Origin: Clostridia bacterium
Lineage (GTDB): Bacteria; Bacillota; Clostridia; Oscillospirales; CAG-272
Direction of reading: 5' to 3'
Assembly: GCA_017472285.1 (NCBI GenBank)
Contig: JAFUQQ010000012.1
Location: 2,051-66,050 of the forward strand
Length of the DNA stretch: 64,000 nt
Positions 10,267 through 40,740 of the stretch are shown one piece after another; position 1 is the first letter of the stretch, and each line of letters begins with the position of its first letter. The notes below the pieces were generated by a model. That model had not been told where the DNA came from. It ran no database searches and worked only from the letters and a program-made list of their open reading frames with translations. A program made the position numbers and the translations under genes.

Positions 10267-10283
10267 ACAAAAATAATAATCGA

Positions 10284-10320
10284 AAGCATCGTGTTTGAAA
10301 TACACGGTGCTTTTCTTTTT
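10284..10320 (+). terminator. rho-independent terminator
   Basis: AAAGCATCGTGT / ACACGGTGCTTT stem (one wobble) followed by a T-rich run. Confidence 0.55.
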
Positions 10321-10331
10321 GAGGAACTATT

Positions 10332-12976: not shown

Positions 12977-13026
12977 AAAGAAACGGGCTGCAACCATCGT
13001 TGCGGCCCATTTCATTTGGAGGGGTT

Positions 13027-16269: not shown

Positions 16270-16346
16270 TTTTTTCTAAGGTCTATGTTATAGTGAAATT
16301 GTTTGAAGCAAGAGAAAATATTCGTTCAAATAAAAAGGGGGAGGCC

Positions 16347-18395: not shown

Positions 18396-19541
18396 ATGAT
18401 GAAAATGATTGAGTTCTCCAATAAGACGAATATTTTGCTCAATGATATTGACGTTGATTTATTGTATTTAAATATTTACTTTGATGTTGGTTTCAAAGAT
18501 GATGTTGACTTTCAAATTGGAGCTGCTCATCTTGCTGAACATATCATTTCAAAAAGTGTAATTAAAAATTTGAATTTGATACAATCGCCATTTAGTTGGA
18601 ACAATGCTTATGTGAGTAAAGAATATACTTGTTTGTGGCATGTAATAAAAAAGGAAGATGAAAATCGCATTGTTTCGTACATTAAGGAATATCTTTCTCT
18701 TATTCAAAATGTAAATAAATACAATTTAATAAATATTGATGGAGAAAAAGAAAGGTTTTATGCTGAGAATGATGCTATTCTTGCAAACACTTTATTGATG
18801 AATTTGCTTTATATTGAATATCAGCTTTTTACAGACGGATATTCAATCCCAAGTTTTTTCTGTGACACAGAAGAAAACTATTTTACTAAATTAAAAGAAA
18901 ATTCGATTCATATGCTTTCAGATCGCTATAAAAATAGCCGTATTACAATAGTAATAACAGGAAAAATTTCCTCTGATATCTTGCAATCATTAACTAATAT
19001 GTGTGTAACGAGAAAGGTTGACGATTGCGAAATTATAAATAAGGTTTATGAAAATATAAAATTCCCACATTATAAAAAGTTGTGTTACATTGCATATAAA
19101 ATATGTATATATGAATTGGAGGGCTCTATTTATCAGCTCGATATATTGGCAAGGTTTTATCAAATTATTTCCAGCAATTATACATACAGAAAAGTTATTT
19201 GTAATTATCAAATTAAGGTTATAGATAATGAAATCCTATTTGCTGTGTTTTTTTATGATAAGAAAGGGATGGATGCTTTTTGCAGTATAGATTTTAACCA
19301 TGCCTTATTATCAAGTGTAGAACTGATTTTCTCAATAAAAAACGAATTAGCTTTCACCTTGGCTAAGAATCTCTCCGATCCTTTTAAGATGAATTTTCAG
19401 ATATATAAGGCTTATCGCGATATGCATAAGCTTCTCAATAAAATGGAGGTTTTACAAACCGTTTATAATATTACTGAAAATGATTTGCAATGCGTTCACA
19501 ATTTAGTAAGAAAAAATGAGGCTCTTAGATATTCTGAGTGA
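18396..19541 (+). CDS. M16 (pitrilysin/insulinase)-family peptidase, candidate leader peptidase
   Basis: Inverted zinc motif HxxEH present as GAAHLAEHIISK near the N-terminus. First gene of the colinear cluster. Confidence 0.65.
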   Translation: MMKMIEFSNKTNILLNDIDVDLLYLNIYFDVGFKDDVDFQIGAAHLAEHIISKSVIKNLNLIQSPFSWNNAYVSKEYTCLWHVIKKEDENRIVSYIKEYLSLIQNVNKYNLINIDGEKERFYAENDAILANTLLMNLLYIEYQLFTDGYSIPSFFCDTEENYFTKLKENSIHMLSDRYKNSRITIVITGKISSDILQSLTNMCVTRKVDDCEIINKVYENIKFPHYKKLCYIAYKICIYELEGSIYQLDILARFYQIISSNYTYRKVICNYQIKVIDNEILFAVFFYDKKGMDAFCSIDFNHALLSSVELIFSIKNELAFTLAKNLSDPFKMNFQIYKAYRDMHKLLNKMEVLQTVYNITENDLQCVHNLVRKNEALRYSE

Positions 19542-20982: not shown

Positions 20983-22017
20983 ATGAATATCGATGATTAT
21001 GTTATAATCGCACCACAGAAGAAGCATCCCGATGTTGTGTTTTTTAATACAAGACAAGGCTCAATTCAAATTAATACTAACATTGATCATGTTGAAAGAT
21101 TCATAACCGATGATAATTATATTAGTGATACAGCCAAAGGAAATATTATAGGTTCTGTGAGCATAATTTGCAAACCTGGGTTGTTCAAAAATGAAGTTAA
21201 TCAATATGCTGATGGTCAATTTATAAAAAAGGAGGATTTGATCTATAGTGTTGGTGTAGAAAACACTATTTTTTGCAATGAAGAATCAAATTTGCTAATC
21301 AATCATTACCCAGTTTGCAATTTGCTTTATTTTAATACTAATCATAACTATGCGCTATGTGTTATACCGAGTGAGGATGTTGCTGGGTTTCTAGCAAAAA
21401 TGGCTATCAAAAGACTATCTGCGAATTATAATTACAGAACCAAGGCATATTTTTCATTACATGCATCTTGTGTAACTTATTTGGATATGGCTTTTGTTTT
21501 TATTGCTGGCGGCAGAGCAGGTAAAACGACATCCTATTTAAACTTAGTAAGCGATAGATATTTTCCAATGAATGATGATGTTTTGTTTTGGAAATGTGAA
21601 CAAGATGATATTACTATTGACAGCATCCCACTAAAAGTAAACATAAGAGAAAATAGTCTTCGTTATTTGAGATTTCCACTTGATTTAACTATATGCAATA
21701 AAGGTTTTGATAATGAATTATATGTAAGCACGGATAAACTCTTTAATAAAACAATCAGCTCTCCAAGCAAATTAAAAGCAATATTTATTCCTGAGATTAA
21801 TCATAAAATTACAACAATAAAGAGAATAAATTCTAAGGATTATTTAAAGCGCATTTTAAGATCTTGTATGACGCATGACCAATTAACGCTAGACGAAAAT
21901 TTTGTAGAATCATTTAACCGATTGATGAAATATTCAATTTACAAAATTGAAATTTCAGACGATGCAGAAGAATTCTTGACATGTTTCAACGCTTTTGTTA
22001 ATACTGTTAGCATTTGA
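20983..22017 (+). CDS. HPr-kinase-like P-loop protein
   Basis: LHASCVTYLDMAFVFIAGGRAGKTTSYLNLVSDRYFPMNDDVLFW matches the HprK C-terminal core pattern (H..v....gvl..G.sG.GKS....L...G....DD). Confidence 0.55.
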   Translation: MNIDDYVIIAPQKKHPDVVFFNTRQGSIQINTNIDHVERFITDDNYISDTAKGNIIGSVSIICKPGLFKNEVNQYADGQFIKKEDLIYSVGVENTIFCNEESNLLINHYPVCNLLYFNTNHNYALCVIPSEDVAGFLAKMAIKRLSANYNYRTKAYFSLHASCVTYLDMAFVFIAGGRAGKTTSYLNLVSDRYFPMNDDVLFWKCEQDDITIDSIPLKVNIRENSLRYLRFPLDLTICNKGFDNELYVSTDKLFNKTISSPSKLKAIFIPEINHKITTIKRINSKDYLKRILRSCMTHDQLTLDENFVESFNRLMKYSIYKIEISDDAEEFLTCFNAFVNTVSI

Positions 22018-22042: not shown

Positions 22043-22189
22043 ATGTCAAATTGCATATTATATGAGTTAACAAAACTTATTGAGGAATGGGAGTATTCAA
22101 TTGATGATTTGGACAATATTAAAATTTTGGAATTATGCACAGGGGGAGCATATTCCCTGGCGTGTCAGAATGGCTGTCAACAGAGGTGA
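22043..22189 (+). CDS. RiPP precursor peptide paralog a (48 aa, 3 Cys, shortened core)
   Basis: GAAGGAG RBS, ATG 22043. MSNCILYELTKLIEEWEYSIDDLDNIKILELCTGGAYSLACQNGCQQR. The leader is homologous to b and c. Confidence 0.7.
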   Translation: MSNCILYELTKLIEEWEYSIDDLDNIKILELCTGGAYSLACQNGCQQR

Positions 22190-22323: not shown

Positions 22324-22482
22324 ATGGATCTTAAACTGGATGAGCTTCGCGAATTGATTGATGAATTGGGATATTCTTTGAACGATCTCGATAATATTGA
22401 AATATTAGCAGCGTGTACAGGAGTTGCTTGTCAACAAAGCTGCCAGCCGGCTTGCCAGCCTGGATGCAGTAATAAACCTTAA
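22324..22482 (+). CDS. RiPP precursor peptide paralog b (52 aa, 5 Cys); not in ORF track
   Basis: AAGGGGG RBS, ATG 22324, TAA 22480-22482. MDLKLDELRELIDELGYSLNDLDNIEILAACTGVACQQSCQPACQPGCSNKP. Confidence 0.8.
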   Translation: MDLKLDELRELIDELGYSLNDLDNIEILAACTGVACQQSCQPACQPGCSNKP

Positions 22483-22853: not shown

Positions 22854-23015
22854 ATGGAGTATAATTTGGACGAATTAAAAAGCATTATTGAGGAATTGGG
22901 ATATTCACTTGATGATTTGGCGAATATTGAAATATTGGCATCCTGCACAGGAGTTTCATGTTCCTCTGCGTGTCAAAACGGCTGTCAACAAGGGTGCTCT
23001 GCTACAAGCAAGTAA
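22854..23015 (+). CDS. RiPP precursor peptide paralog c (53 aa, 5 Cys)
   Basis: AAAGGAG RBS, ATG 22854. MEYNLDELKSIIEELGYSLDDLANIEILASCTGVSCSSACQNGCQQGCSATSK. Confidence 0.8.
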   Translation: MEYNLDELKSIIEELGYSLDDLANIEILASCTGVSCSSACQNGCQQGCSATSK

Positions 23016-23239: not shown

Positions 23240-25042
23240 ATGAGGACCGTTAAAAATATAATGAAGACTATCAAGAATATAGTGAAGATGTTCGACCAAG
23301 CGGTGATGCTTGATAAAGGGTTTATATTTGTTTTCATTCTTTATACTGTACTATCATCGCTGGCAAATATCATTTTACTTTATATCCCCAAATTTTCAGC
23401 TGAGCTTGTCGGAGCAAATTTCAAAAATGTTAACCTATTATATCTTACCGCTCTCGCCATTGTTTTGACTGCCATCTTTGAGTTCGGTTCCGAGTGGATG
23501 TTTGATATATTCAATAGCAGAATATTTCCCATTCGTTTTGGCTTTATCGGGAAGCTGAGTGAAAAGTTTTCTTCATTGGATTATTGCAAAATCATGCAGG
23601 AAGAGTATGTTACGAAAGGTTCTTTTGCTTTTAATGCCATGAAATCCAATGATGTGGGTGTTCAATGTGTCTTACGTGAAATCTTTGTCATATTTTCGTC
23701 CCTCCTATCCATTATTTTGGCGACTGGAATTCTTTCAAACCTTCATATTAGTATTGTTCTTTTATGTGTTATTTTTGCCGTGGTATCATTTGTTCTGCAA
23801 AAAGAAAGAGATAAGCTCTATTTCAAATTTGCTAAAGATAGAGTGAAACTTGACAATAGAGTATCAAATTCATTGAATTTATTATACGATATCCGATATG
23901 GTAAAGAGCTTAGGATGTACGATACCAATAAGCTGATTCTGAATCAGTATTCTTCTTTAATGAAAGAACAACGAAAAAGAAATAACAGGAATAATCTGAA
24001 GTTCCAGATCTTCAACATATGCGGTGTCATATTGGATAAAGGCAAGAATATCTGTATTTATTTTGTGCTGATCTACTTGTATTTTCAAAGTAATATGTCT
24101 CTTGGTGATTTTATTTTATTTATCGGCGCCAGTACAGAATTGTCTTTGTGGCTGAAGAACTTTATTATTCATTTTTCCGCGATTGCAAACAACGGGAGAT
24201 ACATCAATGAATATTATGACTTTTTGAGTATCAGCGATGAATCCTCAAAAACAGAGGAGCTTCATGTTGATCATGTGAAGGATATGACGATAGAATTCAG
24301 AGATGTAAGCTTCCGTTATCCGGAAAGTAATAAATATGTGTTGCAGAATGTTTCTTTGACCATTCACAATGGAGATACGGTTGCTTTAGCTGGATTAAAC
24401 GGTGCGGGAAAGACCACTTTTATATATTTGCTCATGAGACTGTATGAACCGACGGAAGGCGCAATTTTTCTCAACGGAGTCAACATAAATCGGTATTATA
24501 AAAAAGAGTATTGGACGCTGATTAATCCGCTGTTTCAGGATTTCAATATTTTCGCCTTTGACATACGACAGAATGTTTCGCTGAAGACGAAAAAACTTAC
24601 GGATGACCAAAAGGTGGAAAAAGCCTTGGGAAAAATCAATCTTCTTGAAAAAATCAAACAATTGCCGACCAGTACGAAAACGATGTTGACGAAAGAAATT
24701 GACTCGGATGGTTTGCAATTTTCTGGAGGAGAGAGTCAGCGATTGGCGTTTGCCCGTACACTGTACAGGGATAATTCTCTGCTACTAATATTAGACGAGC
24801 CCTCCGCGTCGCTTGATCCCTTGGCAGAAGCGGATCTTTATAAAGAATTCAAAGAATTGAGCCGTGGAAAAACATCTTTGTTTATTTCACATAGGTTTGC
24901 CAGCGTTTCCTTTTGTGACTATGTTATCTTTTTGAATGATGGAAAAGTATCGGAGATCGGCACACACAAAGAATTGATAGAGAAAAATGGTACTTATGCG
25001 GAATTGTACAAAATACAATCTGACTTTTTCCATTCTAAATAA
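23240..25042 (+). CDS. ABC exporter, fused permease/ATPase (half-transporter 1)
   Basis: N-terminal TM domain. Walker A GLNGAGKTT, signature FSGGESQRL, Walker B LLILDEPSASLD. Confidence 0.9.
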   Translation: MRTVKNIMKTIKNIVKMFDQAVMLDKGFIFVFILYTVLSSLANIILLYIPKFSAELVGANFKNVNLLYLTALAIVLTAIFEFGSEWMFDIFNSRIFPIRFGFIGKLSEKFSSLDYCKIMQEEYVTKGSFAFNAMKSNDVGVQCVLREIFVIFSSLLSIILATGILSNLHISIVLLCVIFAVVSFVLQKERDKLYFKFAKDRVKLDNRVSNSLNLLYDIRYGKELRMYDTNKLILNQYSSLMKEQRKRNNRNNLKFQIFNICGVILDKGKNICIYFVLIYLYFQSNMSLGDFILFIGASTELSLWLKNFIIHFSAIANNGRYINEYYDFLSISDESSKTEELHVDHVKDMTIEFRDVSFRYPESNKYVLQNVSLTIHNGDTVALAGLNGAGKTTFIYLLMRLYEPTEGAIFLNGVNINRYYKKEYWTLINPLFQDFNIFAFDIRQNVSLKTKKLTDDQKVEKALGKINLLEKIKQLPTSTKTMLTKEIDSDGLQFSGGESQRLAFARTLYRDNSLLLILDEPSASLDPLAEADLYKEFKELSRGKTSLFISHRFASVSFCDYVIFLNDGKVSEIGTHKELIEKNGTYAELYKIQSDFFHSK

Positions 25043-27008: not shown

Positions 27009-28442
27009 GTGAACAATTTGAAAAGATATGTTTTGCGATCATTTATTAAAATAGATAAAATCGAAAATAAGATGTATTTGGTTTCTAGAATAATGCCAAA
27101 CATTAAGTATGCCTATTTAGATCCATTGGTCGCTCTTGTCGTTTATAAACTTAACACTGGTAATAGCGTCGAGGAAGTTGCAAGTGAGGTGGCTGACTTC
27201 CTACAATGTGAATACACGATTGCTGAAGAAAAAGTGAACAATATTGTATTTATTCTTAGAGATTATTTGATAGAAACAAACAGCACGAAGAATATACGCA
27301 GATCAATCGATTTAAAGAATATACTGGTGGAAGGAAGCCGAGATTTTGAACCTATTGTCCCGCGAAGTTCTGTTCCTAAAAAAATTAGTTTTAATTTAAC
27401 AGAATATTGTCCAAGACAATGCATTTACTGCTTTAATGGCGCAAAACTTTCTGCCAATAATGCCATTCCAAACACTTTTCTGTCACCTGCACGGTTTAAA
27501 GAAGTTATAGACGAGGTTTTGGCACTTGGTATACCTTTTATTGAAATTGGGGGCGGAGATCCATTAATTAATCCTGATATATTGCAGTATATTCAGATAT
27601 TATCTGCTGTTGACGATTCAAAAAAGGGGATTTCTACTAAATCATATGTTAGCCCAGAGTTTGCTATTCAGCTTCGTGAACATGGATTAAATGAAATTCA
27701 AGTTAGTATAGACAGTCTTAATCCCCAAACAGCAGATATGCTGATGGGTGTAAAAAATTCTTACAGGGAAGTAACCGAAACTATAAACAACCTGAGAAAA
27801 GCAGGAATTAATGTAACAATAAAAGCAGTAATTACTTCGTTTAACATTTACGATATACCATCTCTATTTGAGAATTTCATTGATTCGGGAATCAAAAAAA
27901 TTCTATTTAATTATTATAACTTCTCATCTAATCGTCACTCTAAAAAACTTTTCCCCACAAATAGTCAGCTAACATGGTTAAGCGCAAATATGGAAAAATT
28001 GCTCAAAAAGGCTGAGCAAGAACAGGTATATACTGATTATAGAGATATAACTTACGAGGATATTCGATCTACTGATTGTTCCATGATGCTGAAAAGCTAT
28101 ACTAGAAATCAATGTGGTGGTATGAAAGGTGAATTTACTGTTCGCTATGATGGAAAAGTCATCTTTTGTCCAACAATTTGTTATTGTGATGACTTTGTCG
28201 TTGGAGATCTTAAGATTGATGGAATATATGATATTTGGACTTCGTCATTGTTAGATGAATGGGATCGACCGGAAAGCAAACGGGAAAAATACCATGGCAC
28301 GGAGTGCTATGATTGTAAACTGTATGATAAGTGTCATTTCAGAAGATGTTATATTCGGCAATACGATGCCAATAATCGATTTTTTTCAAAAGATCCATTG
28401 TGTCCTTATGGTGATCCTAATTATTCACAATTCATAGAATAA
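27009..28442 (+). CDS. radical SAM/SPASM peptide maturase 2
   Basis: GTG start after AAGAGAAGG. CPRQCIYC. C-terminal Cys cluster (QCGGM..FCPTICYC...CYDCKLYDKCHFRRC). Overall architecture parallels 19562-20965. Confidence 0.8.
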   Translation: MNNLKRYVLRSFIKIDKIENKMYLVSRIMPNIKYAYLDPLVALVVYKLNTGNSVEEVASEVADFLQCEYTIAEEKVNNIVFILRDYLIETNSTKNIRRSIDLKNILVEGSRDFEPIVPRSSVPKKISFNLTEYCPRQCIYCFNGAKLSANNAIPNTFLSPARFKEVIDEVLALGIPFIEIGGGDPLINPDILQYIQILSAVDDSKKGISTKSYVSPEFAIQLREHGLNEIQVSIDSLNPQTADMLMGVKNSYREVTETINNLRKAGINVTIKAVITSFNIYDIPSLFENFIDSGIKKILFNYYNFSSNRHSKKLFPTNSQLTWLSANMEKLLKKAEQEQVYTDYRDITYEDIRSTDCSMMLKSYTRNQCGGMKGEFTVRYDGKVIFCPTICYCDDFVVGDLKIDGIYDIWTSSLLDEWDRPESKREKYHGTECYDCKLYDKCHFRRCYIRQYDANNRFFSKDPLCPYGDPNYSQFIE

Positions 28443-28775: not shown

Positions 28776-29042
28776 ATGAAAGAAATAATAAAGAAAAGAG
28801 TATTAGAAATCGTCAATTCTAATCTGGAATATGAAAAAATCACAATGGAACAATGCGAAGATGATTTGCTTGAATATGGAATGGATTCCATTCGTTTTAT
28901 TCAGACGATTGTTTCCCTTGAAGAAGAATTTGAGTGTGAAGTACCGGATTCAAAATTGCTTTTAGTTGAAATGAATACTATAAATAAAATATATGAAGTG
29001 CTGATTTCTATTGATTCAAATGAATCTAATATTGTTTATTAA
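28776..29042 (+). CDS. acyl carrier protein
   Basis: AAAGGAG RBS then ATG 28776. 88 aa with the phosphopantetheine-site motif LEYGMDSIRFIQ. The track ORF 28614 is a 5' over-extension. Confidence 0.75.
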   Translation: MKEIIKKRVLEIVNSNLEYEKITMEQCEDDLLEYGMDSIRFIQTIVSLEEEFECEVPDSKLLLVEMNTINKIYEVLISIDSNESNIVY

Positions 29043-29269
29043 GTAAATAAAATTAAAGCAGTTCTGTATGGCATGAAAATTAGATGTTTGTTGCACGGTG
29101 TTTTCTTTGATGGTGAATCTGCGATTATGCTTGTTTTTGCCAGGCTGAGGCGTGTTAAGAAAAAGAGGGATGGTGTGTAGATGATATCTTTATATAAAAT
29201 ATTTTGGTGATATTGGCTGTGTGATTCTGTATATTGCGGGGTGTCAGTGAAAGTTTATCGTGTTTGAAT

Positions 29270-29624
29270 CATTGTAAAAATATCGCAAAAAGCATAAATA
29301 TTTATGAAAAACTTGGTTACACCAGAGGTACAGATATTGTTGTTGATCGAATTTAAAATAACAGAATTGTATTTATAGAACGTCTTGATATGACACAATG
29401 GAGCGAGTTGATTGAACCAATTGATAAAGAATCCTCAGTGTATAATTTTAAAGAAAGGTATCATCATATCTGTTACGATGTTAGTGATATTCTATATTTT
29501 TTCTTATTTCAAGTCAATGAAGATTGGTAAGTTATTTACAGAACCAATACAAACTCTAGCAATAAATGATCGACATATTTTTTTTGGGATTAAGCAACAG
29601 TATGTTTGTAGAATTTTGTTGTAA
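29270..29624 (+). pseudogene. VOC/glyoxalase-family (methylmalonyl-CoA-epimerase-like) pseudogene
   Basis: NIAKSINIYEKLGYTRGTDIVVDRI*NNRIVFIE...ELIEPIDKESSVYNFKERYHHICYDVSDI has an in-frame TAA at 29354-29356. The C-terminal half (KIGKLFTEPIQTLAINDRHIFFG) is in another frame. Confidence 0.6.
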
Positions 29625-29879
29625 AGGTGGTTGTTTCATTGTTGAATAAATAACTACGACAAAAGTATTGAAATTACCAAAAAATAGCTTATAAAGAATA
29701 TAATGTTTATAGAATAGTTTAGATTATTTTTATTTATACTAAGGTATTTGGCGTTTTACCATAAAAAATATGTCTTATGTTTTATAAGATTTATTTATGA
29801 TTGAAAATCGCATCCCTATGACATTGTTCAAATTGGAACATAAGTGAATTTTAAATATATTAAAACAAGGGAGATCATA

Positions 29880-31421
29880 ATGGAAAAATTAAAAATCACT
29901 TGGATTTCAAATATACAATTCGAGCCATATTTGCGGTCATGTATTGTTGATGTTTTTGCTCCTTTAAGTTTAACTCCATATACGACATATATTTCATTTA
30001 ATGAGTATTCAGAAAAAATTATGGAAATATCTGATAGTGATTATATTGTTGTCTGCTTAAATCTTGATGAAATATATCCTAATCTTATTAATAATTTGAT
30101 TTCTAATGCAGTATCTGAGGATGCAATTATATCGGATATTGTGGCAAAATGTCAATCGTTTTATAACGCGATAAGATGTTATACATTAACACCAATAATA
30201 TGGATTGGTTTTGAAGACTATTGTTATCATATTGATTATATTGATGGTCAAATACCAATATTAGAATTCCTGACGGACAGATTAAACATAAATGTTTTTC
30301 AAATGTTTAATGGGCAAGATGTCTATATTGATCTTAAACATTTAATTGCAAGGAATGGGATTAATAGATCCTATAATTTAAAAGGGAAATTTCGTTGGAA
30401 TTCTCCATATTCAAAAGAACTAATTTTGTTAATGGTGCAAGAGTTATATAAGCAGTATTTGATATATATAGGTCGAACAAAAAAATGCATTGTGATTGAT
30501 TGCGATAATGTTCTCTGGGGAGGAATTCTTTTAGAAGATGGTATCGAAGGAATTCAACTTGGAAGTTACGGATTAGGACGGCAATATCAAGATTTCCAAA
30601 GATTTTTGCTGACTATGTATTATCAAGGAGTTATACTAGCAGTATGTAGCAAAAACGATGAGCCCGATGTTCTTAAAGTTTTTCGAGAGCATAGTGAAAT
30701 GATTTTAAAGAAAGAATACATTTCTTGCTTTCAATGTAATTGGGATAATAAGCCTGATAATATTCAAAAAATTGCGTATACATTGAATATTGGGATAGAC
30801 AGTATGATTTTTGTTGATGATTCAAAATCTGAAATAGAAGCAGTTAAATCAATGCTACCGAATATTGAAGCTTTTCAATATGACTGTAATACCATATATG
30901 AACAGTTCTCATGTTTTAATCTGAACTCAAAAAGTGATTTGACAAATATCAAAAAAAGAACTGAGACTTATAGAACCAACATTCAACGAGAAAAACTGAA
31001 ATCAGACTTTATATCATCTGATGAATATTTGATGTTGCTTCATACAAAAATTGATATTCACAAGTCACTTTCCATAGAAATGTCACGTATATCAGAACTG
31101 ACACAACGAACCAATAAATTTACAAATGGAATTCGATATACAGTTAATCAGTTAAAAGAGAAAATAAATCGTTTTGGATATGTGTTATATACAGTATCAG
31201 TATCAGACAGATTTTCAGATTTGGGTGTTGTAGGTGTGATAGGTATATATGAAAATAAGTTGGATCTGTTTTCACTTTCATGTAGAGCAATGGGGAGACA
31301 CGTTGAAGATGTTATGATTAATCATATCAAACAATGTAATATAAAAACATGCACATTTGTTTCGACTGGGAAAAATGACATGTTGTATGAAAAATTTAAA
31401 AATTATTTCAATTTTAACTAG
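29880..31421 (+). CDS. FkbH-like HAD-IIIC phosphatase/acyl-ACP-forming enzyme with C-terminal GNAT-like domain
   Basis: AAGGGAG RBS then ATG 29880. CIVIDCDNVLWGGILLEDGIEGIQLG...AVCSKNDEPDV...NWDNKPDNIQKIAYTLNIGIDSMIFVDDSKSEIEAV. C-terminus DRFSDLGVVGVI...LSCRAMGRHVED. Confidence 0.8.
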   Translation: MEKLKITWISNIQFEPYLRSCIVDVFAPLSLTPYTTYISFNEYSEKIMEISDSDYIVVCLNLDEIYPNLINNLISNAVSEDAIISDIVAKCQSFYNAIRCYTLTPIIWIGFEDYCYHIDYIDGQIPILEFLTDRLNINVFQMFNGQDVYIDLKHLIARNGINRSYNLKGKFRWNSPYSKELILLMVQELYKQYLIYIGRTKKCIVIDCDNVLWGGILLEDGIEGIQLGSYGLGRQYQDFQRFLLTMYYQGVILAVCSKNDEPDVLKVFREHSEMILKKEYISCFQCNWDNKPDNIQKIAYTLNIGIDSMIFVDDSKSEIEAVKSMLPNIEAFQYDCNTIYEQFSCFNLNSKSDLTNIKKRTETYRTNIQREKLKSDFISSDEYLMLLHTKIDIHKSLSIEMSRISELTQRTNKFTNGIRYTVNQLKEKINRFGYVLYTVSVSDRFSDLGVVGVIGIYENKLDLFSLSCRAMGRHVEDVMINHIKQCNIKTCTFVSTGKNDMLYEKFKNYFNFN

Positions 31422-31583
31422 GGCTTGTTTGAAAATTAAAAATATGCACAAAAGCGAGGGATTTTTTCGTAGAACAAGCCGATTTTTCGCAGGAATACTG
31501 AACGTATTTTAAGGAAAATCAGCGCAGTTATGCGGAAAAATAACCTTTTCTTGGGCGTGTTGAGATTTTTCAAACAAGCCCTA
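31419..31583. repeat. 17-bp perfect inverted repeat bracketing a 131-bp GC-richer segment
   Basis: TAGGGCTTGTTTGAAAA (31419-31435) and TTTTCAAACAAGCCCTA (31567-31583). The left arm begins with the FkbH stop codon. No flanking direct repeat seen. Confidence 0.6.
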
Positions 31584-31654
31584 ATCAAAGAAAAGCTATA
31601 GTTGTGAAACTAATAATTCAGCTAATATTAAAATTATATGCAAAATTAATTTTG

Positions 31655-32614
31655 ATGGAAAAGATGGGGGTGAAATGTTTGAAATATAATATTGAAAATA
31701 ACAATTTACACAAAAAACAAAAAGCGAATGTTATTAGAAATTTAATGATGTATCACTATTGTGATCCAGTATTTGAAAAATTACAAAATATCCCATATGC
31801 GGTTATTAAAGGCGAAGTGTTATCAATAATAGCGTATGGCGAAGTGGGCTTTCGCGCTTGTGGAGATTTGGATATTTTAATTCCTCGCTCATATGCCGAG
31901 ATAGTAAAAAAAATTTTAATAGAAAACGGTTTTGAGAAAGATTTACATGATGGGGAAAAACAACGTGATGTGACACGAAAAGAGAAAATTATGTTTATGA
32001 ATTCTCATCAGACAGAACCGTATGTAAAAATTATTGATGGAAAAAGACTTGTTCACATTGATATAAATGTCGACATTTTTTGGGGAGAATATAGGGGTAA
32101 GAGAATTGATTTGAATTCTTTTTTGTCGGATACACATGTAATGGAAATTTATAAAAAACATGTAAAAATACTTTCAAATATTAAACATTTTATCGTTTTA
32201 TGTTTGCATCATTATAAAGAAATGAATGCTATATACCATTTTGCTATTAAAAATGCATTTAATGAAAAAATGTTTGAAGATATATATAAATTATATTTAA
32301 AACTTACTGTTGATGATTTGGAGAAGCTGGATGAATTTGTTTTTACATATCAATTAGAAGAAATATTTTATTATATGTTGTATTATACGAGTCTTGTATT
32401 TAGCGATTCAAATTTGAAATTACAAGCTAGTCATTATGAAACAAAGGAAGGAATAGATCATCTCGATTATTATGGATTAACAAATAAAGAACGAAAAAGG
32501 TGGTCTATCCCCTTTGTTGAGAGAATGAACCATCCGAATATATTTGAGATTATTAAAAAAGATTTATCCATAGATGATATAAACAAAATGAATTTAGCTT
32601 TGAGCATATTTTGA
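31655..32614 (+). CDS. NTP_transf_5-like nucleotidyltransferase-fold protein
   Basis: AVIKGEVLSIIAYGEVGFRACGDLDILIPRSYAEIVKKILIENGF is the typical GDxD(I/L)L pattern of the uncharacterised nucleotidyltransferase family seen in RiPP loci. Start is ambiguous (GTG 31604, ATG 31655 or 31664). Confidence 0.6.
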   Translation: MEKMGVKCLKYNIENNNLHKKQKANVIRNLMMYHYCDPVFEKLQNIPYAVIKGEVLSIIAYGEVGFRACGDLDILIPRSYAEIVKKILIENGFEKDLHDGEKQRDVTRKEKIMFMNSHQTEPYVKIIDGKRLVHIDINVDIFWGEYRGKRIDLNSFLSDTHVMEIYKKHVKILSNIKHFIVLCLHHYKEMNAIYHFAIKNAFNEKMFEDIYKLYLKLTVDDLEKLDEFVFTYQLEEIFYYMLYYTSLVFSDSNLKLQASHYETKEGIDHLDYYGLTNKERKRWSIPFVERMNHPNIFEIIKKDLSIDDINKMNLALSIF

Positions 32615-32975: not shown

Positions 32976-34013
32976 ATGAAAAGAGTATTATCTGTTATAG
33001 ATCCTATTATTACACACACACCTCCTATTGCAAATCTTTTTTCTATACTTGGAACAAATCCAAATACAGAAAGTTGGATTATGAATAATTTTGTTAATAT
33101 ATATATCCATGAAAATGAAATCTTTGATAATTTTTATGATCGCAACACTTTTTTCTATGGTTGTCCTTGGATACAGGTGGTTCAAATACGGCGAGAAATT
33201 GTTTTGCGAATTTGTGACCGTATCATAGACTATGTAAAAGCACTTATTGATGAGGGATTCTATGTTTATGTTGCTGGAAATACAGAATGTATTCCTGCAT
33301 ATCCCAACGATTCTTACGGGGCTCATAATTTCATGGTATATGGATATGATGACGAAAATAAAGAATTTTATTTTTCGGATTTTTTTTTGAATAGTAAATA
33401 TGCACGTGGAAAATGTTCTTATTCTGAGCTCGAGGAAGCATTGAAGACATCAAATATGAATCGGTATTTTGTTAATCTAATATATGGGTTGAAACTTAAA
33501 GACATTGAATATAAATTTGAAATTGACTTACTCTCTGAGAAGTTGACTGATTATTTAAACTCAACAAATTTATTCTGCAAATTTAAGACTAGAAAAGATG
33601 AAGAGTTTTATAGTAATAAGGGCGGAAATACTTATAACTATTTCAGTTATGCTGAAATGAAATCCTTATATTTTTTTGGCTTATCATATTATGATAAACT
33701 TACAGAGATGGTCCAAAAAAAATCAAAAAAACTAAAAAGGCCGCTTGATTTATTGTATGAACATAAGTTTTTAATGAGTAGACGCATAAATTTTCTTTAT
33801 CAAAATAAATATATCATTGAATCTGAGTACGAAGGCTTAATAACGATGTGTAAAGATATTTCAAAACTATCTTTAATTAATAGAAATGGATATATAAAAT
33901 ATCAAATGAAACCTTCTGATTTGCTGTTAAGACGCATTAATGAAAGAATTATAGAGACAAAAGAAAAGGATTGTCTTTTTACTGAAAGGCTATTGAAAGC
34001 ACTTGATAGATAG
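32976..34013 (+). CDS. hypothetical protein (weak papain-fold/C39-BtrH-like hint)
   Basis: AAGGAG RBS. 345 aa. The only hint is GAHNFMVYGYDDENKEFYFSDF (His-then-Asp pattern as in C39-like/BtrH-like folds) with upstream FYGCPW. Unverified. Confidence 0.5.
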   Translation: MKRVLSVIDPIITHTPPIANLFSILGTNPNTESWIMNNFVNIYIHENEIFDNFYDRNTFFYGCPWIQVVQIRREIVLRICDRIIDYVKALIDEGFYVYVAGNTECIPAYPNDSYGAHNFMVYGYDDENKEFYFSDFFLNSKYARGKCSYSELEEALKTSNMNRYFVNLIYGLKLKDIEYKFEIDLLSEKLTDYLNSTNLFCKFKTRKDEEFYSNKGGNTYNYFSYAEMKSLYFFGLSYYDKLTEMVQKKSKKLKRPLDLLYEHKFLMSRRINFLYQNKYIIESEYEGLITMCKDISKLSLINRNGYIKYQMKPSDLLLRRINERIIETKEKDCLFTERLLKALDR

Positions 34014-36769: not shown

Positions 36770-37207
36770 ATGAAAAGAAAATATAAACGCGGAGAAATCT
36801 ATTATGCAGATTTAAGTCCGGTGGTTGGTTCAGAACAGGGTGGTTATCGTACGGTTTTAGTTCTTCAGAATAATAAAGGGAACAAGTACAGTTCCACAGT
36901 AATCGTGGCTTCTATTACAAGCAGACTTGGCAAGCATAAACTTCCCACCCATGTAGATATGAGTTCTATCAGATTGAAAAAACATTCTATCGCGCTTTTG
37001 GAGCAACTCCGAACGATTGATAAGTCGAGAATGAAAGAATACATAGGGAAGGCAACAAAAGCAGAGATGACAGAAATCGAAACGGCGTTGCTGATCAGTG
37101 TTGGTATACAGCAGGAATTTTTAATGAATCCGAAGCTGGTAATGTTTATGCTTAGTGTGATAAGGAAATACTTTGATCGAGTGCTTGACATTTATCCTAT
37201 AATATGA
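36770..37207 (+). CDS. MazF/PemK-family endoribonuclease toxin (with ~30-codon 3' extension)
   Basis: AAGGAG RBS. KRGEIYYADLSPVVGSEQGGYRTVLVLQNNKGNKYSSTVIVASITS...LLEQLRTIDKSRM. The ORF tail runs through the next promoter. Confidence 0.8.
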   Translation: MKRKYKRGEIYYADLSPVVGSEQGGYRTVLVLQNNKGNKYSSTVIVASITSRLGKHKLPTHVDMSSIRLKKHSIALLEQLRTIDKSRMKEYIGKATKAEMTEIETALLISVGIQQEFLMNPKLVMFMLSVIRKYFDRVLDIYPII

Positions 37208-37505: not shown

Positions 37506-38165
37506 ATGCAAACAAAGAAAGATAAACGTGAATATATCCGTAGTCAAATTATTGCGGCATCACATATTTATCGAGATCATCTTGCCGGTAAAGTGTTCCT
37601 GTATGTGCATGGAGAATCCTATTTTGAAGTGGTTTTCAAAACGGATCGCTTTATGCATTTGACAGGTGTAAGCTCTCCATTGAATGCAAGTTCATTTTAC
37701 GAAAAAGCAAAAGCTTCTAAGCTTACAACCGGACAGATTGTGTTTGACAGTAAGCATCCGTATGAAGGAGCAAAGAAAAAATTACCGTGTCTTTTGAAAT
37801 TGCCATCACTGACAGAAGAACTTGTTTGTGTGGTAAAGGATATGCAAACGCTTACACTTACATATAAGATCGGTGTTACGAATCTTGATTTTACGATTGG
37901 ACTGACTGAAAATATAGATTTTGAGGGCAATAAGATCAATGATTGGTTTTTGCCGAGAACATTGCGTGTGAGAGACAAAGCGATTGAAAATAGTCCGTCT
38001 GCGGAATTTGTTGATTTTATTTTCTGTAAAGATGCTTCGCATGAAAAATATTCGACACTAACTTTTTCGGATGAATTAAAAGATATTCCTTCTGTGATTG
38101 AGAAGTTTCTTTCATCAGAATTGCTTGAATCGTTGAAAAAAGATAAAAGTGAAATTACAACTTAA
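37506..38165 (+). CDS. 219-aa protein, tentatively PBECR4-like (Barnase/EndoU/colicin-RelE-like nuclease domain family)
   Basis: YRDHLAGKVFLYVHGESYFEVVFKTDRFMHLTGV...LTLTYKIGVTNLDFTIGL resembles my recollection of PBECR4 proteins. Unverified. Confidence 0.55.
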   Translation: MQTKKDKREYIRSQIIAASHIYRDHLAGKVFLYVHGESYFEVVFKTDRFMHLTGVSSPLNASSFYEKAKASKLTTGQIVFDSKHPYEGAKKKLPCLLKLPSLTEELVCVVKDMQTLTLTYKIGVTNLDFTIGLTENIDFEGNKINDWFLPRTLRVRDKAIENSPSAEFVDFIFCKDASHEKYSTLTFSDELKDIPSVIEKFLSSELLESLKKDKSEITT

Positions 38166-39114: not shown

Positions 39115-40740
39115 ATGAATACAGATATGCCAAGAACAATCACAAAAATAGAAGCTAATCCGCTTTTAGCAAAAGGAAAAGATGATTTCCGAATCAAAAG
39201 GGTAGCGGCATATTGCCGAGTATCCACAGATGATGAAGATCAGCTTAATAGCTACGAAGCGCAGATTGCTTATTACACCGAGGTGATTGCCAAAAATCCG
39301 AATTGGCAATTTGCAGGAATCTATGCAGACGAGGGAATCACAGGAACAGCAACGAAAAAGAGAAAAGATTTTCTTCGTCTGATGCGCGATTGTGAACATG
39401 GCAAAGTGGACTATATTCTCACAAAGTCGATTTCCCGTTTTGCAAGAAATACCGTCGATAGTTTAACTTGGGTTCGCAAACTTCGTGTGAAAGGTATCGG
39501 TGTCTATTTTGAAGAACAGGCGATTGATTCTTTGAAAGCGGAAAACGAAATGCTGATCGGTTTATTTAGCGTAATTGCACAGTCAGAGAGCGAGAATATC
39601 GGTGCTAATGTCAAATGGGGTATCCGTCAGAGCATGAAAAGCGGAACCTATTGTACGAATTTTTCTTGTTACGGTTATCGACGCGGTGATGATGGGATTC
39701 CTATTATCGTTGAGGATGAAGCAACAGTAATCAGAGAAATTTATAAGCAATTTCTTGATGGAAAAAGCACACTTGCGATCAGTCGTTATTTGACAGAACA
39801 ACATATACTAACCTTTTCGGGCAAGACCGAATGGAATAAAAGTAGAGTCAGAGATCTTTTATCCAATGAAAAATATGTAGGAGACGTTCTTCTGCAAAAA
39901 ACATATGTTGTTGATCCCATATCAAAACAGACAAAGACAAATAACGGCGAGCTTGCGAAATATTTGATTGCCAATAATCATCCTGCCATTATTGATCGTG
40001 ATACATACAACGCTGTTCAAATGGAGCTTGCCGCAAGAAACAGTAAATCTAAAAGATCAGAAAGAGGGATTACTGAGAAAGGGAAGTACAGCTCCAAGTA
40101 TGCGCTTACCGATGTTTTAATCTGTGGGTGCTGCGGTAGTTATTATCGCAGAACAGGGAAAACGGTCAAGGGAAAAGTGCAGCACGTTTGGCGTTGTATC
40201 GGACGAATCGAACATCGTTGCAAAGATGCCGTAGGCATCGAAGAAACAAAATTACATACGGCAATCTGCAAATGTCTTTCGCAGATGATGAATCACCGAG
40301 AGGATGTTATCAATCTTTGCCGTGCCAATTTACAGTATGCCTTAATAGGTGATACACAGGTTCTTGATGTGTTTGCAATTGAAAATCAAATTGAGCATAA
40401 CCAAGACCTCATTGATGACCTTATGGAAAAAGCAGAGAAGACAACGGGGGATCCGGAGCGTTATGAAAGGGAAATTATAAAACTGTATGAACAAATCGCA
40501 GTTTTAAGAGATCAGCTAAAACTTGCTAAGACACAAGCAGAACAAAACGTGAGTGTCAATGCTGAAATCGAGCGATTTATCAAAGCAGTACAAGAGTACG
40601 ATGACGCTGATTTTACGGAGTACAACGATGTCATGATTCGCCGTCTTGTCGAATGTATTCGAGTGATTCCGGATAGGAGTATTGAGGTGGTGTTAAAGAA
40701 CGGTGAAAAAGAAAGCGTAGAAATGAAATTTTTAGATTGA
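39115..40740 (+). CDS. large serine recombinase (intact)
   Basis: RVAAYCRVSTDDEDQLNSYEAQ, SRFARNTVD, recombinase and zinc-ribbon region (CGCCGSYY...WRC), coiled-coil C-terminus. 541 aa. Confidence 0.9.
   Translation: MNTDMPRTITKIEANPLLAKGKDDFRIKRVAAYCRVSTDDEDQLNSYEAQIAYYTEVIAKNPNWQFAGIYADEGITGTATKKRKDFLRLMRDCEHGKVDYILTKSISRFARNTVDSLTWVRKLRVKGIGVYFEEQAIDSLKAENEMLIGLFSVIAQSESENIGANVKWGIRQSMKSGTYCTNFSCYGYRRGDDGIPIIVEDEATVIREIYKQFLDGKSTLAISRYLTEQHILTFSGKTEWNKSRVRDLLSNEKYVGDVLLQKTYVVDPISKQTKTNNGELAKYLIANNHPAIIDRDTYNAVQMELAARNSKSKRSERGITEKGKYSSKYALTDVLICGCCGSYYRRTGKTVKGKVQHVWRCIGRIEHRCKDAVGIEETKLHTAICKCLSQMMNHREDVINLCRANLQYALIGDTQVLDVFAIENQIEHNQDLIDDLMEKAEKTTGDPERYEREIIKLYEQIAVLRDQLKLAKTQAEQNVSVNAEIERFIKAVQEYDDADFTEYNDVMIRRLVECIRVIPDRSIEVVLKNGEKESVEMKFLD

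Follow-up and report, generated by a model that had tools for sequence, protein, structure and literature searches.

A cassette encoding an acyl carrier protein (ACP), an FkbH-type enzyme and a protein of the NTP_transf_5 nucleotidyltransferase fold (NT5) lies inside a radical SAM (rSAM) RiPP operon in the stretch of DNA analysed here (the window; 64,000 nucleotides of a Clostridia bacterium, contig JAFUQQ010000012.1). We propose, with moderate confidence in both statements taken together, that the trio, together with a CtaG/BtrH-like protein and, optionally, a VOC protein, forms a conserved, portable module delivering ACP-borne glycerate to a peptide, and that its partners are thioether-type radical-SAM RiPP clusters that also hold an HprK-related kinase. 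The proposal draws on the genes observed, on the integrity of their motifs, on similarities of fold and on co-occurrence across related loci.

Results

Table 1. Features of the cluster (positions in the window)
Feature	Position	Strand	Evidence
ORF, 381 aa, motif HxxEH (AAHLAEH), possible M16-like leader peptidase	18396..19541	+	Sequence motif only
Radical SAM/SPASM peptide maturase A, 467 aa	19562..20965	+	Pfam Radical_SAM 80 bits, SPASM 37 bits
HprK-related kinase-like P-loop protein, 344 aa (GGRAGKTT)	20983..22017	+	phmmer, family alignment
Precursor peptide A (MSNCILYELTKLIEEWEYSIDDLDNIKILELCTGGAYSLACQNGCQQR)	22043..22189	+	Leader and core in common with B, C
Precursor peptide B (MDLKLDELRELIDELGYSLNDLDNIEILAACTGVACQQSCQPACQPGCSNKP)	22324..22482	+	Leader and core in common with A, C
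Precursor peptide C (MEYNLDELKSIIEELGYSLDDLANIEILASCTGVSCSSACQNGCQQGCSATSK)	22854..23015	+	Leader and core in common with A, B
ABC exporter subunit 1, 600 aa, without peptidase domain	23240..25042	+	Pfam ABC_tran
ABC exporter subunit 2, 588 aa	25055..26821	+	Pfam/NCBIfam profile search
Radical SAM/SPASM peptide maturase B, 477 aa	27009..28442	+	Pfam Radical_SAM 86 bits, SPASM 32.5 bits
Acyl carrier protein, 88 aa, phosphopantetheine-site motif GMDSI	28776..29042	+	Pfam PP-binding
Glyoxalase_4 (VOC) pseudogene	29264..29600 (approx.)	+	tblastn vs intact orthologues
FkbH-type HAD-IIIC phosphatase/acyltransferase, 512 aa, predicted glyceryl-S-ACP synthase	29883..31421	+	TIGR01686
Intergenic element, exact 15-nt inverted repeat (GGGCTTGTTTGAAAA) at its bounds	31421..31581	.	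Sequence
NTP_transf_5 nucleotidyltransferase-fold protein	31655..32614	+	PF14907
CtaG/BtrH/CcbD-like papain-fold protein, 345 aa	32976..34013	+	AF2, Foldseek

The RiPP operon claimed around the trio by the original prediction is real: its genes encode three Cys-rich precursors, two rSAM-SPASM maturases and two ABC exporters, together with an HprK-related kinase-like protein (Table 1). The precursors have a common leader and CTG/Cys-rich cores, and A and C probably start at an internal Met; another locus, L018, encodes precursors related to them at the position equivalent to that of precursor B. Maturase A carries an extra N-terminal stretch of ~130 aa and is weakly similar to sactipeptide maturase models (StsB, SkfB, AlbA-type; NCBIfam). 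ABC subunit 1 matched bacteriocin and MsbA-type exporter models of NCBIfam with scores under their cutoffs, and the 381-aa protein, a possible M16-like leader peptidase judging by its motif, had no matches in Pfam or NCBIfam. Low in GC, the entire cluster is carried as cargo by a conjugative element (ICE). Two loci from other assemblies (L050 and L051) match it in their layout of called genes and encode a 345-aa protein identical to that of the window; the architecture is also found on a mobilizable plasmid from cultured Clostridium perfringens.

The observation that PKS and FAS genes are missing also held: a Pfam search of 40 window ORFs revealed no KS, AT, FabH or condensation domain. The window ORFs scanned included no PPTase gene either, so that the ACP relies on a host enzyme for its holo form, a point against our proposal. 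No GNAT gene was found, and the cassette includes no MBOAT/DltB-like membrane-bound transferase; hydrophobic segments of the cassette proteins, of the HprK-like protein and of the 381-aa protein are all too short for a membrane helix.

The ACP (EYGMDSIRF) matches Pfam PP-binding with 42.9 bits (cutoff 20.8, E 6e-11) and has a good ribosome-binding site. Its phosphopantetheine-site motif is the same in 29 of 35 cassette ACPs. The NCBIfam search also returned weak similarity to DltC and to TIGR04069 ocin_ACP_rel (E 3e-4, 21 bits against a cutoff of 70). The VOC gene that follows is dead, as had been noted: it contains an in-frame stop and a frameshift and lacks its N-terminus, while retaining 45-51% identity to nine intact Glyoxalase_4 orthologues (tblastn), an intact orthologue matching PF13669 with E 3.5e-15.

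FkbH is full-length and scores well above the cutoffs of TIGR01686 (232.7 bits against 146.65) and TIGR01681 HAD-IIIC (67.1 against 35.75); its HAD part matches PDB 3slr. We took ATG 29883 as its start, the listed ORF beginning at GTG 29844. The motifs reported earlier (DCDNVLWGG, CSKND and FVDDS) are present, as is LSCRAMGR. The window protein has DxDxV, CSKN, NW..K..N, FVDD, QRTN and SCRxxGR in register both with FkbH domains inside 2.5-5.7-kaa megasynthases and with stand-alone 600-aa FkbHs, and lacks none of the catalytic motifs of glycerate-loading FkbH domains. These motifs suggest that it loads glycerate on the ACP.

Between FkbH and NT5 lies the inverted-repeat element, which occurs once in the window, has arm ends 131 nt apart and could represent a MITE, a terminator or the scar of a rearrangement. 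The NT5 ORF spans 31604-32614; its start is uncertain, 31655 being likelier. The protein, correctly assigned from its GDLDILIP motif, matches PF14907 with 97 bits (cutoff 31.2), and the family alignment shows no variation at the DxD or at a third Asp. Its AF2 model (pLDDT 93.5) has a generic NTase fold, and the fold search returned generic NTases only, which counts against our proposal. Two NT5 homologues are fused to a Peptidase_S24 domain, one of them followed directly by an ACP gene and an ORF of 524 aa that is FkbH-like by size alone. NT5 is thereby linked with a peptidase-like domain for which these RiPP clusters otherwise have a gene of its own.

The two most informative partners of the trio, the kinase-like and the CtaG/BtrH-like protein, had been overlooked. 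The window kinase-like protein is related to its L018 orthologue (phmmer E 1.3e-32) and on its own matches no curated model (Pfam, NCBIfam and HPr kinase search), a further point against our proposal. In its family alignment, 19 of 20 members match TIGR04352 HprK_rel_A, and the family profile matches HPr kinase 1jb1.

The 345-aa protein has weak BtrH_N and Peptidase_C39_2 matches under the Pfam cutoffs. Its AF2 model (pLDDT 82.8) resembles AziU2/U3, CtaG and CcbD with Foldseek probability 1.0 (E 4e-9 to 4e-5). Papain-like ligases of this fold use carrier-protein-bound acyl donors (PMC12865890), and the model makes the 345-aa protein a candidate ACP off-loading or amide-forming enzyme. H117 and D135 are invariant. 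The alignment, however, shows no canonical N-terminal catalytic Cys, and Cys63 is conserved, yet not across the wider family. The fold family is present in 23 of 45 FkbH loci, in 16 of them directly 3′ of FkbH. The missing Cys and the absence of the protein from about half of the loci count against our proposal.

To place the cassette in a wider context we collected 29 species-representative FkbH-anchored loci, each with at least 8 kb upstream, and scored rSAM genes within 10 kb. ACP was present in 28 loci, NT5 in 24, ABC transporters in 25, rSAM in 23 and HprK-like genes in 18. The co-occurrence of rSAM with the FkbH-anchored cassette is far above chance (binomial p ~6e-8, with an assumed background of 0.3 that we judge generous). 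A second set comprised 69 distinct NT5-anchored metagenome loci. ACP adjoins NT5 in 45 of 50, the stop and start codons of most pairs overlapping by 4-8 nt; upstream, rSAM is found in 28 of 30 and HprK-like genes in 25 of 30; downstream, FkbH is found in 19 of the 25 loci with sufficient sequence on that side and is replaced by an AMP-binding enzyme in two of the 25. In many related loci Cys-rich precursor genes adjoin the rSAM genes. The related loci sampled come from gut and rumen bacteria.

The recurrence of this pairing in most related loci suggests peptide decoration, and the prediction that the trio works for the RiPP pathway gains strong comparative-genomic support, as well as support from the CtaG-like fold encoded downstream. 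The exception is a minority of six of the 29 well-flanked FkbH-anchored loci, in which the cassette and an ABC exporter lie amid housekeeping genes, the 10 kb around them being free of rSAM genes, and no convincing precursor was seen; these show the RiPP-free arrangement that the original prediction had named as contrary evidence, and count against our proposal. VOC genes occur in 10 of the 29 loci; they are intact in about one third of related loci, and the majority of functional-looking loci do without them. The order typical of the family is NT5-(VOC)-ACP-FkbH, from which the window differs; with its VOC gene dead and its gene order unusual, the window module could be decaying, again a point against our proposal.

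Discussion

Family membership and intact motifs suggest that FkbH dephosphorylates 1,3-bisphosphoglycerate at position 3 and attaches the glycerate to the holo-ACP through a thioester bond. Where the VOC protein is intact, this thioester may be its substrate, a purely conjectural step that would be dispensable in the window. The likely acceptor of the ACP-borne unit is the peptide: the glyceryl group would pass from the ACP to the rSAM-modified precursor in the cytoplasm, ahead of ABC export. The bond formed depends on which of two plausible routes, which may also act in sequence, is followed. In one, the kinase-like protein would phosphorylate a peptide Ser or Thr, and NT5 would then couple the new phosphate group with one of the hydroxyls of the glycerate carried by the ACP, in parallel with PsmN. 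In the other, the CtaG-like enzyme would move the thioester onto an amine (a new N-terminus or Lys), or merely off-load it.

The window FkbH matches, above cutoff, the same family model as FkbH of FK520, OzmB, Tmn16, ZmaN and the BslA loading domain (suomilide/banyaside), and has in common with PKS/NRPS FkbH systems the HAD motifs, the C-terminal SCR cysteine motif and an adjacent dedicated carrier protein. In NRPS systems with FkbH, glycerate ends up as the peptide's N-terminal cap (PMC13122637). In the window, by contrast, no KS, AT, FabH or C domain is available for the glycerate, and no homologues of FkbI/K/G of the methoxymalonyl-ACP pathways were found in it. Its FkbH belongs to a distinct subfamily of ~510-530 aa, with QRTNK(F/C)T-NG in place of QRTNQFNLT, found inside rSAM RiPP clusters.

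Paeninodin and pseudomycoidin lasso clusters, like the window, combine an HprK-related kinase or kinase-like gene, a nucleotidyltransferase gene and an ABC exporter. There, the uncharacterised nucleotidyltransferase PsmN needs an HprK-family kinase and is required for hexose addition to the kinase-made peptide phosphate, whether as the transferase itself or as maker of a substrate for a host glycosyltransferase, which its authors left undecided (PMC6993621); this ambiguity also counts against our proposal. NT5 retains both catalytic Asp residues of the NTase, the likeness of the two being one of family description. The RiPP class, however, is lasso there and rSAM thioether-type in the window, and lasso clusters lack an ACP and an ACP-loading enzyme, to both of which NT5 of the window family is translationally coupled.

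CtaG and CcbD couple carrier-protein-bound acyl groups with amines, and CcbD has been crystallized in complex with a PCP domain. The 345-aa protein has in common with the CtaG/BtrH/AsbE/CcbD ligases the predicted bipartite fold, His and Asp with the right spacing and, just 3′ of an ACP and its loader, a carrier-protein context. It lacks counterparts of the nucleophiles Cys11 of CtaG and Cys19 of CcbD, and its presumed acceptor is a ribosomal peptide.

The RiPP/ACP hybrid was originally called unusual. Hybrids as such have precedent in goadvionin GdvG, which accepts ACP-bound acyl donors only (bioRxiv 10.1101/2023.10.25.564083); it is the FkbH/glycerate version for which the literature searched held no paper. 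Goadvionins, lipolanthines, selidamides and lipoavitides carry a non-ribosomal acyl unit on a ribosomal peptide, as predicted for the window (PMC8784127). Goadvionin/lipolanthine-type hybrids, however, use PKS/FAS-made fatty acyl chains, GNAT acyltransferases and lanthipeptide- or avionin-type scaffolds, whereas glycolysis would supply the window unit, a predicted C3 hydroxy acid, and its partners are NTase-fold, kinase-like and papain-like ligase-fold proteins. TIGR04352 and TIGR04069, the latter already cataloguing ACP-like proteins of rSAM peptide systems, are described functionally in no paper that we found in the literature searched.

The best-surviving alternative, which we nevertheless consider unlikely, is that ACP/FkbH/NT5, with or without the CtaG-like protein, and the ABC exporter form an independent pathway whose adjacency to RiPP genes reflects co-regulation or co-transfer and not common chemistry. 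Its output would be a small glycerate-derived metabolite or a modified component of the cell or envelope, for instance one by which the producer protects itself. The six rSAM-less loci are as such a pathway would have them. So are the AMP-binding enzymes, extra ACPs, class-II aaRS-like protein and 828-aa protein with a C-terminal PP-binding domain of some related loci, typical of small carrier-protein assembly lines, the ACP's weak similarity to DltC, and the membership of CtaG, BtrH and AsbE in non-ribosomal pathways. However, rSAM maturases accompany ~80-93% of loci, with precursor genes beside them in the inspected loci; the S24 fusions connect NT5 with a RiPP-cluster domain; the cassette has neither a condensing enzyme nor an MBOAT/DltB-like protein, all of its proteins being soluble; and the sole studied pair of an HprK-like kinase and such a nucleotidyltransferase acts on a peptide.

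It is less probable still that ACP and FkbH aid radical-SAM or kinase chemistry indirectly, leaving the product free of glycerate. The ACP could be a scaffold or chaperone like the 'peptide maturation system acyl carrier-related protein', in keeping with its weak TIGR04069 match and with ACP-like genes in rSAM clusters without FkbH (L052-L054), but the match is far under the cutoff and the phosphopantetheine Ser motif is kept. Likewise, the HAD domain of FkbH could be a phosphatase on a peptide phosphorylated by the kinase-like protein; FkbH, however, retains the SCR cysteine motif along with every other motif that marks true loading domains, and its replacement in some loci by an adenylating (AMP-binding) enzyme points to an ACP-loading and not a phosphatase role.

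Finally, the view that a PKS-type glycerate cassette was captured accidentally by the conjugative element and is now non-functional, to which the VOC pseudogene, the atypical gene order, the repeat element splitting FkbH from NT5 and the low-GC ICE setting would lend themselves, is very hard to sustain, because the ACP, FkbH, NT5 and CtaG-like genes are all intact, VOC is dispensed with in most functional-looking loci anyway, L050 and L051 preserve the layout, and the association recurs in different species, the co-occurrence statistics having already largely refuted accidental juxtaposition.

Composition and setting of the cassette

ORF listing, reading of the DNA and profile searches confirmed the ACP, the FkbH-type protein, the NTP_transf_5 protein (NT5) and the dead VOC gene of the original prediction (see table). 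The phosphopantetheine-Ser carrier protein lies 840 nt upstream of FkbH. The FkbH-type protein also scores above the curated cutoff of the HAD-IIIC model TIGR01681 (67.1 versus 35.75). A joint alignment with megasynthase FkbH domains (P0382, P0387, P0410) and 600-aa FkbHs showed that it retains HAD motifs I-IV and the C-terminal Cys of the SCR motif, the conserved stretches being DCDNVLWGG (I), CSKN (II), the NW..K..N lysine motif (NWDNKPDN), FVDD (IV), QRTN and LSCRAMGR (LSCRxxGR). From work on OzmB, this Cys is reportedly the acyl-enzyme site. Among 1.84 billion cluster representatives searched, 11,032 were related to FkbH at E≤1e-3, of which 4,288 reached E≤1e-30; these relatives include domains within 2.5-5.7 kaa megasynthases with about 33% identity to the window protein. 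BF1531 (3slr), uncharacterised and the only relative with a solved structure, covers residues 130-332, chiefly the HAD portion. The best match in the homologue search was at 57%, and the window's own FkbH was not returned, which looks like a sensitivity limit of the search rather than absence; a 513-aa gene is called at its position in loci L050 and L051, from other assemblies.

In PKS and NRPS pathways, FkbH enzymes make glyceryl-S-carrier protein from 1,3-bisphosphoglycerate, and FkbH-derived glycerate caps occur on non-ribosomal peptides (PMC3679948, PMC13122637). Since this is the reaction of the family, the window FkbH very probably makes glyceryl-S-ACP, as judged from its sequence. The claim that PKS or FAS genes able to use such a unit are missing was borne out, as no KS, AT, FabH-like or condensation enzyme was present among the 40 window ORFs scanned against Pfam. 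We likewise looked for partners of the methoxymalonyl-ACP (FkbGHIJK) and tetronate (FabH-like) glycerate pathways, and found no acyl-CoA dehydrogenase-like FkbI, 3-hydroxyacyl-CoA dehydrogenase-like FkbK, O-methyltransferase FkbG, FabH-like condensing enzyme or PKS in the window ORFs scanned or in the recurrent families of 47 related loci. The VOC remnant is 45-51% identical to nine intact orthologues, which belong to Pfam Glyoxalase_4; it carries an in-frame stop and a frameshift, and its N-terminus is gone.

The RiPP cluster upstream comprises three precursor genes, two rSAM-SPASM enzymes and two ABC subunits. The precursors (start codons of two of them inferred) share the leader …LDEL…ELGYSL.DL.NIEIL…, and their Cys-rich cores contain a conserved C-T-G; related precursors occur in L018, a locus with the same architecture as the window. 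Models of StsB, SkfB and AlbA match below threshold only, and the product is predicted from its genes to be of the rSAM thioether type (sactionine or ranthionine). An integrative conjugative element (ICE) carries the whole RiPP cluster as cargo, with conjugation genes on one side and a large serine recombinase on the other; this cargo is low in GC (about 0.30 versus 0.44). The cassette lies in a low-GC island over about 14-36 kb, where GC is about 0.27-0.37, and the flanking DNA upstream has 0.43-0.47. The region gave no megablast match to plasmids. A serine-recombinase-like gene also adjoins the cassette in two related loci (L003 and L023). The putative sigma factor, its partner and the secreted protein encoded just before the RiPP genes may regulate the cluster.

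The inverted repeat between FkbH and NT5 is present in a single copy in the window; a repeat search of 31380-31640 reported no inverted repeat, and the exact arms were given by a pattern search. Because the gene order also departs from the usual one (ACP-VOC-FkbH-NT5 versus NT5-(VOC)-ACP-FkbH), the gap may be the trace of a rearrangement, or else a small mobile element.

Features of the mobile element, RiPP operon and cassette (window positions)
Feature	Position	Strand	Basis or remark
MobA/VirD2 relaxase, TraG/VirD4 coupling protein, VirB4-like ATPase	4091-13015		Upstream of RiPP cluster
ECF-type sigma factor-like ORF	16266-16964		Directly upstream of RiPP genes; by sequence look
Membrane-anchored partner-like ORF	16942-17655		Upstream of RiPP genes; by sequence look
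Secreted protein-like ORF, 142 aa	17735-18163		Upstream of RiPP genes; by sequence look
381-aa protein		as cassette	Upstream of cassette; HxxEH sequence motif
Three short precursor genes		as cassette	Upstream of cassette; common leader, Cys-rich cores
rSAM-SPASM enzyme	19562-20965	as cassette	
HprK-like P-loop protein, 344 aa	20983-22017	+	Family alignment
Two ABC exporter subunits		as cassette	Upstream of cassette
Second rSAM-SPASM enzyme	27009-28442	as cassette	
ACP, 88 aa	28776-29042	+	PP-binding E 6e-11; motif GMDSI
VOC remnant	about 29264-29600	+	In ACP-FkbH gap; aligned by tblastn to nine intact orthologues
FkbH-type protein, 512 aa	29883-31421	+	TIGR01686, 232.7 bits vs cutoff 146.65
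Intergenic inverted repeat	31421-31581		Fills FkbH-NT5 gap; exact 15-nt arms GGGCTTGTTTGAAAA, arm ends 131 nt apart
NT5	ORF 31604-32614, probable start 31655 (inferred)	+	PF14907, 97 bits vs cutoff 31.2; GDLDILIP
345-aa ORF	32976-34013	+	Downstream of NT5; weak BtrH_N and Peptidase_C39_2 matches
PemK-family toxin gene	36770-37207		Between cluster and recombinase; annotated in equivalent L050 locus
PBECR4 nuclease-family gene	37506-38165		Between cluster and recombinase
Large serine recombinase	39115-40740		Downstream of RiPP cluster

Conservation of the module

A scan anchored on FkbH, with one genome per species, gave 44 loci. Most come from MAGs of gut, rumen or insect-gut Clostridia, a few from Bacteroidales and one from an Anaerolineaceae. 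FkbH is full-length in 38, and 29 have at least 8 kb upstream. All ORFs of the loci were clustered and family HMMs applied. With HMMs built from these same loci, which may miss divergent members, and with many contigs truncated, the ACP was found in 28 of the 29 loci, the ABC exporter in 25, NT5 in 24, the HprK-like protein in 18 and VOC in 10. rSAM genes, whose co-occurrence with FkbH/ACP the original prediction had proposed to count, were found in 23 of the 29 (the background of 0.3 in the binomial test is an assumption). The usual order is rSAM, S24/PqqD protein, HprK-like protein, ABC, ABC, NT5, (VOC), ACP, FkbH, (BtrH-like).

A second scan, of metagenomes and anchored on NT5, gave 69 distinct loci. 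ACP adjoins NT5 in 45 of 50, and the NT5 stop and ACP start overlap by 4-8 nt in most such gene pairs. Where the sequence extends far enough downstream (25 loci), FkbH follows in 19; its place is taken by an AMP-binding enzyme in 2 of those 25 and in several shorter loci. Upstream, rSAM (28/30) and the HprK-like protein (25/30) recur, and Cys-rich precursor genes lie just upstream of rSAM genes in many related loci. The FkbH- and NT5-anchored counts therefore show that the ACP/FkbH/NT5 trio is a conserved module of rSAM RiPP-type clusters, with NT5-ACP as its most constant core. Since the AMP-binding enzyme can replace or join FkbH, the loader of the ACP is interchangeable while NT5-ACP stays constant.

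Several variants were observed. The AMP-binding enzyme stands after NT5-ACP, instead of or besides FkbH, in L072, L089, L095, L122, L120, L088, L014 and L035, and extra ACPs are sometimes present in such loci. Two 447-aa homologues (P0205, P0209) are natural Peptidase_S24-NTP_transf_5 fusions, and directly behind one of them (locus L137, 5482-8665) come an ACP gene and an ORF of 524 aa, the size of an FkbH. In Rosetta-stone fashion, the fusions seem to link NT5 with the S24-like domain, which many clusters encode as a separate gene. Two genes just upstream of FkbH in L021 (6346-9977) encode a class-II aaRS-like protein and a protein of 828 aa that ends in a PP-binding domain. In L005, from C. 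beijerinckii, a 310-aa protein with an APH-type kinase-like motif (HGD...N...DWD) lies between the rSAM genes and ACP (6729-7661).

Nucleotidyltransferase and kinase-like protein

Three acidic residues of NT5 (D71, D73 and D136 in the 319-aa numbering) are invariant in 30 sequences, as expected of a nucleotidyltransferase (NTase). Its AF2 model (pLDDT 93.5) matches NTase-fold structures, with generic neighbours: MenT toxins, ANT(2''), LnuA and, weakly, the ribitol-phosphate transferase FKRP. Sequence searches of the PDB with NT5 and with the downstream 345-aa protein gave no match, and only the fold search was informative. The 344-aa HprK-like protein by itself matches no curated model in profile searches. 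It aligns with its family, 19 of 20 aligned members of which match TIGR04352 (HprK-related kinase A), and a profile of the family alignment finds HPr kinase structures (1jb1, E 1.6e-5).

A functional precedent for NT5 is PsmN, an uncharacterised nucleotidyltransferase. In a lasso peptide whose C-terminal Ser is phosphorylated by the HprK-family kinase PsmK, PsmN is needed for one or two hexoses to be added to that phosphate; the evidence is genetics and MS, and the authors left undecided whether PsmN itself is the transferase (PMC6993621). In the RiPP cluster here, NT5 co-occurs with an HprK-like gene. We also considered NT5 as a dedicated holo-ACP synthase, because the NTase fold is shared by CitX and MdcG and because L005 lacks NT5 and encodes an Sfp-type PPTase. 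This idea found no support: PPTase genes are present in only 3 loci, one of which (L055) has NT5 as well.

A downstream protein with a predicted CtaG/BtrH-like fold

The 345-aa ORF had been missed in the original prediction. Its product matches a hypothetical protein from a Clostridia bacterium MAG at 100% identity, and the called gene layout around it is the same in L050 and L051. It stays below the Pfam gathering threshold for BtrH_N (21.3 versus 29.7 bits). Its AF2 model (pLDDT 82.8; helical C-terminus, 254-343) matches 8gs1, 9qvp and 7yn1 with a Foldseek probability of 1.0 and a TM of about 0.5; the high-confidence matches comprise three structure sets only, AziU2/U3 (E 4e-9), CtaG of closthioamide biosynthesis (about 6e-7) and CcbD (about 1e-5), the last including a CcbD complex with a PCP domain. 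CtaG, BtrH and AsbE are described as papain-like ligases with a Cys-His-Asp triad that form amides with acyl groups taken from carrier proteins (PMC12865890). In the 345-aa protein, His117 and Asp135 are invariant and correctly spaced, and the N-terminal Cys of the triad is absent. Aligned by hhalign with the canonical Cys-bearing BtrH-like family, its family gave a probability of 4.6%, only the His/Asp and C-terminal parts being aligned. The protein is thus modelled with the CtaG/BtrH/AsbE/CcbD fold, yet one hallmark of that family is missing, because residues 1-62 contain no Cys and Cys63 is conserved among close homologues only, not across the wider family. The canonical Cys is present in paralogous families of other loci. 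Of 45 distinct FkbH loci, 23 encode a protein of this fold group, and in 16 its gene immediately follows FkbH.

At 60% identity, the nearest relatives of the 345-aa protein that are widespread (L052-L054) are likewise ICE cargo. They adjoin PadR regulators and lie near a different rSAM cluster (B12-rSAM, S8 peptidase, weak PP-binding protein, rSAM-SPASM, ABC), and none of the genes called within 10 kb is of FkbH size. In L001, L006 and L007, which have no CtaG/BtrH-like gene, FkbH is directly followed by a protein of about 810-857 aa (family f17) whose GYSNGS motif is a possible alpha/beta-hydrolase nucleophile motif; it could be an alternative off-loading enzyme.

Possible function

The intact catalytic motifs, the predicted folds, the recurrent tight linkage, the swappable ACP loader and the solubility of the cassette proteins (none has a membrane segment) lead us to favour, by a modest degree, the view that the module tailors a peptide using an ACP-borne unit. 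FkbH would load glycerate onto the ACP, and the unit would reach the rSAM-modified peptide ahead of export. The kinase-like protein and NT5 could join a peptide phosphate to the glycerate hydroxyl; by another route, possibly after the first, the CtaG-like protein could resolve the thioester onto an amine. One specific form of this scheme we regard as speculative and, taken as a whole, unlikely: NT5 would use the kinase-installed phosphate on the rSAM-modified peptide to form a phosphodiester to an ACP-held hydroxy acid (glycerate from FkbH here, an acid loaded by the AMP-binding enzyme elsewhere), after which a papain-like ligase or a hydrolase would resolve the thioester and give a phosphoglyceryl-linked, possibly cyclised, peptide.

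The original prediction had allowed for the trio being a cassette independent of RiPP genes, and this holds for a minority of the loci. In 6 of the 29 FkbH loci, housekeeping genes surround the cassette and exporter and rSAM genes are absent within 10 kb, and nothing convincing was found in a search for precursor genes in four rSAM-less loci (L017, L021, L023, L025); the rSAM genes at the other 23 speak against independence. An independent pathway to a small molecule or an envelope modification seems improbable to us, and a Dlt-like envelope modification carries little weight, since no cassette protein has a membrane segment. We give a still lower probability to an indirect or scaffold role of ACP and FkbH, the GMDSI serine and the FkbH motifs being in place. 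An accidental or decaying juxtaposition, of which the dead VOC gene might be a sign, is very unlikely in view of the recurrent linkage.

Relation to known systems

Peptide tailoring of this kind would resemble some known systems in part. The goadvionin enzyme GdvG takes ACP-bound acyl donors (bioRxiv 10.1101/2023.10.25.564083), and lipolanthines, selidamides and lipoavitides are also RiPP/non-RiPP hybrids (bioRxiv 10.1101/2023.10.25.564083; PMC8784127). In these systems, fatty acyl chains are attached via GNAT enzymes. FkbH-derived glycerate caps are already known from NRPS peptides, whereas the context here is a predicted rSAM thioether-type RiPP; kinase-plus-NTase tailoring is already known from lasso peptides, whereas here the kinase-like and NT5 genes stand with FkbH, ACP and a CtaG-like protein. 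We know of no RiPP with a carrier-protein-delivered C3 hydroxy acid. Literature searches on FkbH with RiPP, radical SAM or sactipeptide, on the HprK/NTase/ACP combination and on TIGR04352/TIGR04069 returned no description, and the combination of FkbH, ACP, ACP-coupled NT5, HprK-related kinase-like and CtaG-like proteins on rSAM thioether-type peptides is widespread and uncharacterised.

If the module decorates peptides, a carrier-protein-delivered C3 hydroxy acid would join the RiPP modifications, and three large uncharacterised families would gain a function: FkbH (about 4,300 representatives in 50%-identity clusters at E≤1e-30, a number that includes PKS/NRPS-type FkbH domains), the ACP-coupled NTP_transf_5 subfamily and the HprK-related kinase family. 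Should the phosphodiester model be true, the modification would form a new post-translational class and a new way of combining glycolysis, carrier proteins and ribosomal synthesis, and it would be common among the mobile elements of Clostridia from gut and rumen. The modularity of the loader, which can be FkbH or an AMP-binding enzyme, points to a handle for engineering peptides that is exchangeable by nature.

Because Clostridia of gut and rumen, and pathogenic ones, C. perfringens among them, carry the clusters on ICEs and plasmids, the products are likely competition factors in the microbiome. The 56-kb mobilizable C. perfringens plasmid pZ1323HCP0097-3 (NZ_CP148590.1; L135/L136) repeats the architecture of these clusters, encoding rSAM, signal peptidase I, a PqqD-family protein, rSAM, ABC, NT5, VOC, ACP, HAD-IIIC and a hypothetical protein; upstream of the rSAM gene we found transposase-like ORF fragments only and no clear precursor. 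The plasmid is present in many cultured isolates, and its carriers are a tractable experimental host.
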